Sequence record: PQ511151.1
Length of the DNA stretch: 64,000 nucleotides
Reading direction: 5' to 3' (one strand)
Origin: Escherichia phage NHEP36
Shown here piece after piece: positions 42,276-42,992 of this stretch (position 1 is its first letter; the number at the start of each line of letters is the position of its first letter). A model generated the notes under the pieces. It saw only the letters and a program-made list of their open reading frames with translations, was not told the origin of the DNA and ran no database searches. Both the position numbers and the translations under genes were made by a program.

Positions 42276-42992
42276 ATGGGAAAACATAACACAATGAAAT
42301 ATATTAAAGCCGCAGATTTTCAATCCGCATTTAAAGCTGTCAATCGTGAAATTTTAGAAAACCCGGAATTCGTAACTGATTCTCGTATTGGACGTTGTAA
42401 TGAAATTGGGTCTATGACAGTAGTTGTTGACACTCCATCAACATTCAAAATGACTGACCCACGTATTAACCGCATCTCTTATGAATATGCCGAAGACTTC
42501 TGGAAGTTTATGATCTCTGGTGGTACTGACGCAGAAGAAGCGTTTAAGGCATATCCTAATGTCGCTAAATTTATTTCTAAACCAAAATCAGATGCTTTGC
42601 CTGCGAACTTCAACACTTTCTATGGTCCTCGCATTGCGGCCCAATTACCAGCTCTTTTAAAAGAACTTAAAGAGAAGCCTAACTCTCGAAGAGTTGTGTT
42701 TCAAATTCTTGAAAGTTCAGATCAGGCTTTGCTTGATTCGGACGAAACTCTTGAATATCCATGTACTGACTCAGTGACTTATTATATTCGCGATGGTAAG
42801 CTTTATACCCACTGTCATATGCGTTCTCAGAACTGTGCTGTTGTTATGCAGTTGGATTTTTATCTCCAAGGAAAATTACTTCATTATATCGCTAACGAAT
42901 GTGGTGTAGAAGTTGGTGATTATACTCATACCATGGTAAGTGCCCATGTGTTTGAACGTGATTTTGATTATGTTAAAGGATTCCTTGACTAA
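42276..42992 (+). CDS. thymidylate synthase / dCMP hydroxymethylase family enzyme (divergent gene 42 analogue)
   Basis: NSRRVVFQ, catalytic-Cys context EYPCTDSVTYYIRD, HMRSQN...QLDFY align with T4 gp42 active-site regions but overall identity is low. Confidence 0.65.
   Translation: MGKHNTMKYIKAADFQSAFKAVNREILENPEFVTDSRIGRCNEIGSMTVVVDTPSTFKMTDPRINRISYEYAEDFWKFMISGGTDAEEAFKAYPNVAKFISKPKSDALPANFNTFYGPRIAAQLPALLKELKEKPNSRRVVFQILESSDQALLDSDETLEYPCTDSVTYYIRDGKLYTHCHMRSQNCAVVMQLDFYLQGKLLHYIANECGVEVGDYTHTMVSAHVFERDFDYVKGFLD

Follow-up and report, generated by a model that had tools for sequence, protein, structure and literature searches.

A predicted 5-hydroxy-dCMP synthase of the thymidylate synthase fold at the gene 42 position of an RB69-like phage

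We analyzed a 64,000-nucleotide stretch of DNA from Escherichia phage NHEP36 (PQ511151.1), called the window below, and in it an open reading frame (ORF) of 238 amino acids (aa) at positions 42276..42992, where phage T4 carries gene 42. This ORF very probably encodes a phage 5-hydroxy-dCMP (5hodCMP) synthase, which would put a hydroxyl rather than a hydroxymethyl group on C5 of deoxycytidine monophosphate (dCMP). By every sequence criterion that we tested, the 238-aa protein is a member of the published 5hodCMP synthase family, and none of its sequence features speaks against this assignment. The enzyme itself is already known, having been described and crystallized in 2025–2026 for phages RB69 and HY126, and the window adds another allele only. 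It belongs to a remarkable enzyme class, in which the fold of a folate-dependent one-carbon transferase is reused for a hydroxylase that works with flavin and O2. The 5-hydroxyl serves as the anchor for arabinosylated cytosines, a modification that blocks restriction enzymes and also has effects on CRISPR and on type IV restriction.

The assignment is carried by near-identity to experimentally validated enzymes. The window protein shares 236 of 238 residues with RB69 gp48 (NP_861738.1), which has the same length and occupies the same position in the same gene cluster, and 235 of 238 with the enzyme of Escherichia phage HY126 (XAN60475.1). A sequence search of the Protein Data Bank (PDB) returned 9IQC and 9IR2 (238 aa) and 9IQU (234 aa) at E 4.5e-162, labelled ‘thymidylate synthase’. 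The sole differences from 9IQC are E30Q, T56S and E87K, exactly the three substitutions that separate the window protein from XAN60475.1. The fold is that of thymidylate synthase, as judged from 98.7% identity to the solved structure 9IQC and from a match to Pfam PF00303 (Thymidylat_synt; E 2.4e-15, 56.9 bits against a cut-off of 24.3).

In RB69 and in Acinetobacter phage DLP3, cytosine is replaced by mono-, di- or tri-arabinosylated 5-hydroxycytosine (5hoC) (Lee et al., Nucleic Acids Res 2026, PMC13326640), and the arabinose is joined to C5 of cytosine via an ether oxygen, for RB69 on the evidence of nuclear magnetic resonance (NMR) and mass spectrometry (MS) (PMC13326640). Expression of RB69 gp48 or DLP3 gp80 with its own dNMP kinase led to 5-hydroxy-dC (5hodC) in E. 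coli DNA, where the activity of gp48 was shown in vivo with 18O2 labelling; gp48 converts dCMP to 5hodCMP, 18O2 labels the product, and flavin mononucleotide (FMN) co-purifies with the enzyme (PMC13326640). Of further homologues that carry Asn at the position of D169 in E. coli ThyA, 9/9 made 5hodC, and production of 5hodC was shown for the Thanatos homologue and RL38J1 gp216 as well as for DLP3 gp80 (PMC13326640). For the HY126 homologue, a flavin-bound crystal structure and in vitro reconstitution with O2 by He et al. (Nat Chem Biol 2026) are relayed by Lee et al. (PMC13326640). Finally, the same pathway was described independently for Mosigvirus NP, and the earlier ‘arabinosyl-hmC’ assignment for RB69 has since been revised (PMC13390438).

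Some points weigh against the assignment. The structural and in vitro details for HY126 reach us second-hand, through Lee et al. (PMC13326640); a single-sequence AlphaFold2 model of the window protein was unusable (predicted local distance difference test score of 41.9); and this allele differs from the activity-proven RB69 gp48 at two residues (S17T and T56S), both conservative changes. We infer flavin binding and the formation of 5hodCMP from dCMP and O2 in this allele by transfer from RB69 gp48 and HY126.

We used MAFFT to align the window protein with E. coli ThyA, T4 gp42, RB69 gp48 and the HY126, DLP1, Thanatos-2 and OLIVR6 homologues. The catalytic Cys is C163, in an invariant column (ThyA C146, also Cys in T4 gp42) and within the segment EYPCTDSVTYYIRD (residues 160–173, with EYPC at 160–163). 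Identical residues are likewise found in ThyA, the window protein and gp42 at ThyA R126/R127 (R138/R139 in the window protein), Y94 (Y116), R166/S167 (R183/S184) and H207 (H224). In contrast, ThyA L143 is replaced by E160 in the window protein and by Asp in gp42, and ThyA N177 is Asp in both (D194 in the window protein, where MRSQN...D spans residues 182–194, MRSQN residues 182–186 and QLDFY residues 192–196). ThyA D169, which is also Asp in gp42, is N186 in the window protein. Neither Asp169 nor Trp80 is retained as in T4 gp42 and ThyA: N186 and an Ala stand in their places, the Ala being read from the N-terminal half of the ThyA/gp42 alignment, which is less reliable in that the known T4 Glu60 is misplaced there. 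The C-terminal tail of ThyA (~45 residues) is missing from the window protein.

Asn at the D169 position has been proposed as diagnostic of the family, alongside N177D for dCMP specificity and L143E (PMC13326640), and the window protein carries N186, D194 and E160 at these positions. Glu143, Asn169 and Asp177 (ThyA numbering) are common to 6/6 hydroxylase-clade sequences in the alignment. The homologues of Acinetobacter phages (DLP3 gp80 and DLP1), Shewanella phage Thanatos and Rhizobium/Agrobacterium phages have these three residues together with Cys146, at 71%, 72% and ~32% identity to the window protein, respectively. With the D169N/N177D signature, such genes could be re-annotated from sequence alone across phage records. 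At present, the labels given to homologues in those records vary among thymidylate synthase, deoxycytidylate 5-hydroxymethyltransferase, hypothetical protein and ‘dCMP hydroxymethylase’.

An earlier note on this DNA, made from its letters alone, had placed an enzyme of the thymidylate synthase fold at the gene 42 position, had aligned its catalytic-Cys context and MRS...D block with T4 gp42, and had taken the Asp of QLDFY at the specificity position as a sign of a cytosine substrate. These readings hold up. The ORF has its PF00303 match and, like T4 gene 42, lies between gene 43 and uvsX; C163, R183/S184 and D194 correspond to ThyA C146, R166/S167 and N177, with D194 as the Asp in question; and dCMP is the substrate of the 99%-identical RB69 gp48 (PMC13326640).

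The best of the alternatives, though a very improbable one, is that the ORF encodes a canonical dCMP hydroxymethylase, an orthologue of T4 gp42 that would use methylene-tetrahydrofolate to make 5-hydroxymethyl-dCMP, the latter then being arabinosylated; this was the view taken of RB69 in 2018. The two proteins do have much in common, including the thymidylate synthase fold, the dCMP substrate, the catalytic Cys146, Thr147, Met165, Asp177, an acidic residue at 143, a short C-terminus, and a locus directly upstream of a DNA glycosyltransferase gene. Several GenBank homologues are, moreover, labelled deoxycytidylate 5-hydroxymethyltransferase. However, high full-length identity to canonical gp42, which the earlier note had named as the refutation of its own view, was looked for and identity was only 25% over 218 aa. 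At 53 bits, gp42 is no closer to the window protein than is E. coli ThyA (30% identity over 115 aa, 57 bits; all-against-all BLAST), and structures of T4 gp42 were not among the 60 best PDB sequence matches. T4 gp42 also keeps Asp169 and Trp80, which are Asn and, within the less reliable part of the alignment, Ala in the window protein, and it adds CH2OH from methylene-tetrahydrofolate, whereas enzymes of the window type add OH from O2 with flavin. In the same assay T4 gp42 gave 5-hydroxymethyl-dC and RB69 gp48 gave 5hodC (PMC13326640), and NMR and MS of RB69 DNA place the ether link directly on C5 (PMC13326640, PMC13390438).

The earlier note had also described the protein as far more diverged from T4 than its neighbors, and this part stands: its 25% compares with 62–85% aa identity to T4 for the products of neighboring replication genes, namely gp41 (85%), gp46 (82%), gp40 (80%), gp45 (79%), regA (79%), gp44 (77%), gp62 (73%), UvsX (68%) and gp43 (62%). 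As these values show, calling the neighbors near-identical to T4 was an overstatement; they are RB69-like. A megablast search with window positions 36000–48000 found 149 phage records with at least 80% coverage, the best matches listed having 97.6–98.4% nucleotide identity (RB69, 97.7%). By sequence, the source of the window is an RB69-like Mosigvirus and not a T4-like Tequatrovirus. The suggestion of an altered product chemistry was right in outline, given that RB69 gp48 makes 5hodCMP with O2 and flavin, but neither hydroxylation nor a flavin cofactor had been foreseen, and the methylene-tetrahydrofolate assay proposed in the note was misdirected. The note had offered xenologous replacement as the other option. 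The window protein stands equally far from gp42 and from ThyA, as would suit a distinct superfamily branch at this locus, and such a branch may have arrived as a cassette at a conserved hot spot. The gene may instead have diverged deeply in place, and against replacement by a cassette stand the features common to gp42 and the hydroxylase clade, namely Thr147, Met165, the acidic residue at 143, Asp177 and the short C-terminus.

That the ORF encodes an ordinary thymidylate synthase, converting dUMP to dTMP as many phage records have it, is highly implausible. The Pfam match, a match to the PHROG thymidylate synthase family and the many database labels speak for it, and E. coli ThyA has in common with the window protein its fold, Cys146, Arg126/127, Arg166, Ser167, Tyr94 and His207. 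In contrast, ThyA differs in N177, D169, L143, W80 and its C-terminal tail, and acts on dUMP to give a methyl product. In the window protein, Asp194 replaces the dUMP-specifying Asn177, Trp80 (in the column noted above) and the C-terminal tail are missing, and all NCBIfam thymidylate synthase equivalog models scored far below their cut-offs (69.6 vs. 174.55 for the best; 42–50 vs. 108–405 bits for the others). In some Xanthomonas phages a thymidylate synthase homologue makes 5-methyl-dCMP, and the fold and the Asp at 177 would also suit such a dCMP 5-methyltransferase. This reading is just as implausible, given an acidic rather than bulky hydrophobic residue at 143, the presence of D169N and the 5hodC product determined for the near-identical RB69 enzyme (PMC13326640). 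Taken together, the three rivals account for only a small remainder of the probability, and a 5hodCMP synthase is strongly preferred.

Outside the enzyme’s own family, the PDB matches listed were cellular thymidylate synthases (the best being that of S. aureus, 4.5e-12) and the CMP 5-hydroxymethylase MilA (5JNH, 5B6D). MilA, the only family among these matches other than thymidylate synthase, aligns over nearly the full length of the window protein (residues 14–237; E 1.2e-11). Positions 143 and 177 are both Asp in MilA (PMC13326640). Unlike the window-type enzyme, MilA is folate-dependent, takes a ribonucleotide as its substrate and yields a hydroxymethyl product.

We propose a reaction course in which the Cys-adduct and flavin-hydroperoxide steps are modeled on the chemistry of the thymidylate synthase family and of flavin monooxygenases. 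Asp194, at the ThyA N177 position, would read the cytosine base. In the step common to all enzymes of this fold, Cys163 would attach to C6 of dCMP and so turn C5 into a nucleophile. C5 would then attack an activated oxygen formed on reduced FMN with O2, most likely a flavin C4a-hydroperoxide, and elimination of Cys163 would free 5hodCMP and regenerate the enzyme. The folate one-carbon donor would in this way be exchanged for flavin and O2 on the thymidylate synthase fold, and the switch from folate to flavin may be accompanied by Asn instead of Asp at residue 186 and by the lack of both Trp80 and the C-terminal tail. A dNMP kinase of the phage and the nucleoside diphosphate kinase of the host would carry 5hodCMP to the triphosphate, while the gp56 dCTPase would destroy dCTP and supply dCMP, and gp43 would insert 5hoC instead of C. 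The co-encoded arabinosyltransferases would add one or two arabinofuranoses from UDP-arabinofuranose, for whose synthesis the isomerase, kinase/pyrophosphorylase and phosphatase encoded upstream would be responsible. The predicted end product is 5-arabinosyl-hydroxy-cytosine DNA, which would be resistant to restriction.

The genes of the published RB69 cluster all map to the window at 97–100% identity, except for gp49 (90%) (Table 1). The surroundings of the hydroxylase gene are those of a cluster for the glycosylation of 5hoC, with genes for the isomerase, kinase/pyrophosphorylase, phosphatase, transferase and kinase; the window also has the gp56 dCTPase gene and part of a second transferase gene. 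The hydroxylase ORF is preceded by a ribosome-binding site (GAGG, 6-nt spacing before the ATG), and stop and start codons overlap (TAATG) at its junction with the following transferase ORF. Over positions 37800–44700, neither promoter-like sites (23 vs. 27.2 in shuffled sequence) nor terminator-like sites (4 vs. 3.9) exceeded expectation.

Table 1. Position of the predicted hydroxylase gene and of the associated genes in the window.
Feature	Coordinates	Strand	Details
Arabinose-5-phosphate isomerase (RB69 gp55)	37902..38537	+	100% identical to RB69 p055; NCBIfam KpsF/GutQ 2e-32
Bifunctional sugar kinase/NDP-sugar pyrophosphorylase (RB69 gp52:53)	38719..40404	+	561 aa; 98.6–98.8% to RB69 p053, p052
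HAD-type sugar phosphatase (RB69 gp51)	40389..40790 (start 40389 or 40404)	+	97.7% to RB69 p051; NCBIfam capsule-biosynthesis phosphatase 2.4e-13
U32-family protein (RB69 gp50)	40832..42007	+	391 aa from GTG; Pfam Peptidase_U32 7.5e-11; 99.5% to RB69 p050
76-aa ORF (RB69 gp49, phrog_8601)	42004..42234	+	89.9% to RB69 p049
Predicted 5-hydroxy-dCMP synthase (flavin/O2-dependent dCMP 5-hydroxylase, thymidylate synthase fold)	42276..42992	+	238 aa; ATG start, TAA stop
Putative DNA arabinosyltransferase 1 (RB69 gp46:47)	42992..43891	+	299 aa; 98% to RB69 p047 and p046; phrog_3891
Thymidylate-kinase-like nucleotide kinase (RB69 gp45)	43893..44441	+	182 aa; 98.9% to RB69 p045; phrog_761 thymidylate kinase
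uvsX	from 44541		after the nucleotide kinase gene
dCTPase gp56	51880..52401	+	97.1% to RB69 gp56
Second putative arabinosyltransferase (RB69 gp3)	63497..64000	+	N-terminal 168 aa, cut by window end; 99.4% to RB69 p003 residues 1–168

The bifunctional kinase/pyrophosphorylase matches Pfam NTP_transferase and, weakly, kinase models. According to the account of HY126 relayed by Lee et al., its analogue AfhE makes UDP-arabinofuranose, and AfhF is the analogue of the HAD phosphatase (PMC13326640). The arabinosyltransferase role of RB69 gp46:47 was proposed from structure models, RB69 gp3 was proposed as a second arabinosyltransferase, and RB69 gp45 was tabulated as a ‘nucleotide kinase’ (all PMC13326640 Table 1). 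A P-loop kinase of the RB69 gp45 type is kept in every cluster that we examined (Mosigvirus, Lazarusvirus, Jiangsuvirus and Thanatos) and is distinct from the gp1-type dNMP kinase of the published assays. The kinase/pyrophosphorylase and first transferase genes are each a single intact ORF in the window, whereas the RB69 record splits each of them in two. These splits have been stated to be sequencing errors (PMC13326640), a view supported by the intact genes in the window.

In T4, gene 43 and uvsX are separated by imm.1, imm, 42, beta-gt and segA, and the order of a thymidylate synthase homologue followed directly by a DNA glycosyltransferase is common to T4 and the window. Homologues of imm and imm.1, which in T4 lie between genes 43 and 42, are found in the window at 48168..48837 (+ strand), downstream of gene 41 and dmd. 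Their displacement relative to T4 suggests that the stretch from gene 43 to uvsX, where the modification cassette lies, is a rearranged hot spot.

The U32-family gene, 270 bp upstream of the hydroxylase gene, and the chorismate mutase genes that neighbor it in other phages are the only part of this locus that might still hold new biology. Chorismate mutase makes prephenate, and the U32 proteins RlhA, TrhP and UbiU/V are hydroxylases that depend on prephenate and need no O2. The host pairs O2-dependent with U32-type hydroxylases, TrhO with TrhP and UbiI/H/F with UbiU/V, and the phage genes would be a parallel to this if they formed such a pair. We consider it conceivable, though on balance doubtful, that the thymidylate synthase-fold hydroxylase is only the aerobic half of a pair and that the U32 gene encodes an oxygen-independent, prephenate-dependent cytosine 5-hydroxylase. 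Such an enzyme would give the phage an anaerobic back-up route, by which it could make 5hoC DNA when its host, for example E. coli in the gut, is anoxic. RB69 gp50, the U32 protein, is tabulated only as a ‘sugar or heterocycle reductase’ (PMC13326640).

In Enterobacter phage Entb_45 (L010, 5783..6022), a 79-aa chorismate mutase is encoded between the U32 and hydroxylase genes (Pfam CM_2, 40.9 bits against a cut-off of 27). Homologues of it bring the number of phage records with a chorismate mutase to 51 (Entb_45 and 50 others), and every annotated match listed adjoins a thymidylate synthase-like or U32 gene. Mosigviruses have no chorismate mutase in the gap between the U32 and hydroxylase genes, only an unrelated 76-aa ORF. 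None of the papers in the literature that could be searched connects hydroxycytosine in a bacteriophage with chorismate mutase.

Homologues of the U32 gene, each with an identity of at least 80%, were found in 221 phage records. The hosts listed for these phages are all Enterobacterales or Shewanella, with 12 records under 7 further host names not itemised. Neither Acinetobacter phage DLP1 nor Pseudomonas phage PspYZU05 has the gene in its equivalent cluster, and Rhizobium/Agrobacterium phages are not among the matches of the U32 gene. The correlation of the U32 gene with host is confounded with phage phylogeny, a caveat for the anaerobic route. Because DLP3 makes tri-arabinosyl-5hoC (PMC13326640) and the cluster of its relative DLP1 lacks the gene, the U32 protein is probably not needed for the arabinose steps.

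The window’s U32 protein, to which RB69 gp50 maps from 40838 rather than from the GTG at 40832, has Cys-rich motifs of its own, FCSNAGKGYTTHCSYRDSC and, in the C-terminal part, Cx4Cx3Cx2C. When this protein is aligned by MAFFT with E. coli UbiU, UbiV and TrhP, the Cys-rich segment is gapped and the iron-sulfur cysteine motif of UbiU/TrhP is not alignable. With hhalign, similarity to the E. coli U32 proteins was weak and confined to residues 55–193 (probability 9.9%, E 0.0032), and a PDB sequence search with the U32 protein gave no match.

The 76-aa ORF that follows the U32 gene was considered as a diverged chorismate mutase and ruled out, as it has no BLAST similarity to the Entb_45 enzyme and no Pfam match. 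In Yersinia phage TG1 and Pectobacterium phage PM2, a chorismate mutase gene and a gene of the 76-aa type occur in tandem. The ORF is ~90% identical to RB69 gp49, vs. 98–100% for its neighbors, and the ORF annotated at this place in HY126 has only 123 nt. This pattern suggests that the 76-aa ORF may be under relaxed constraint or decaying.

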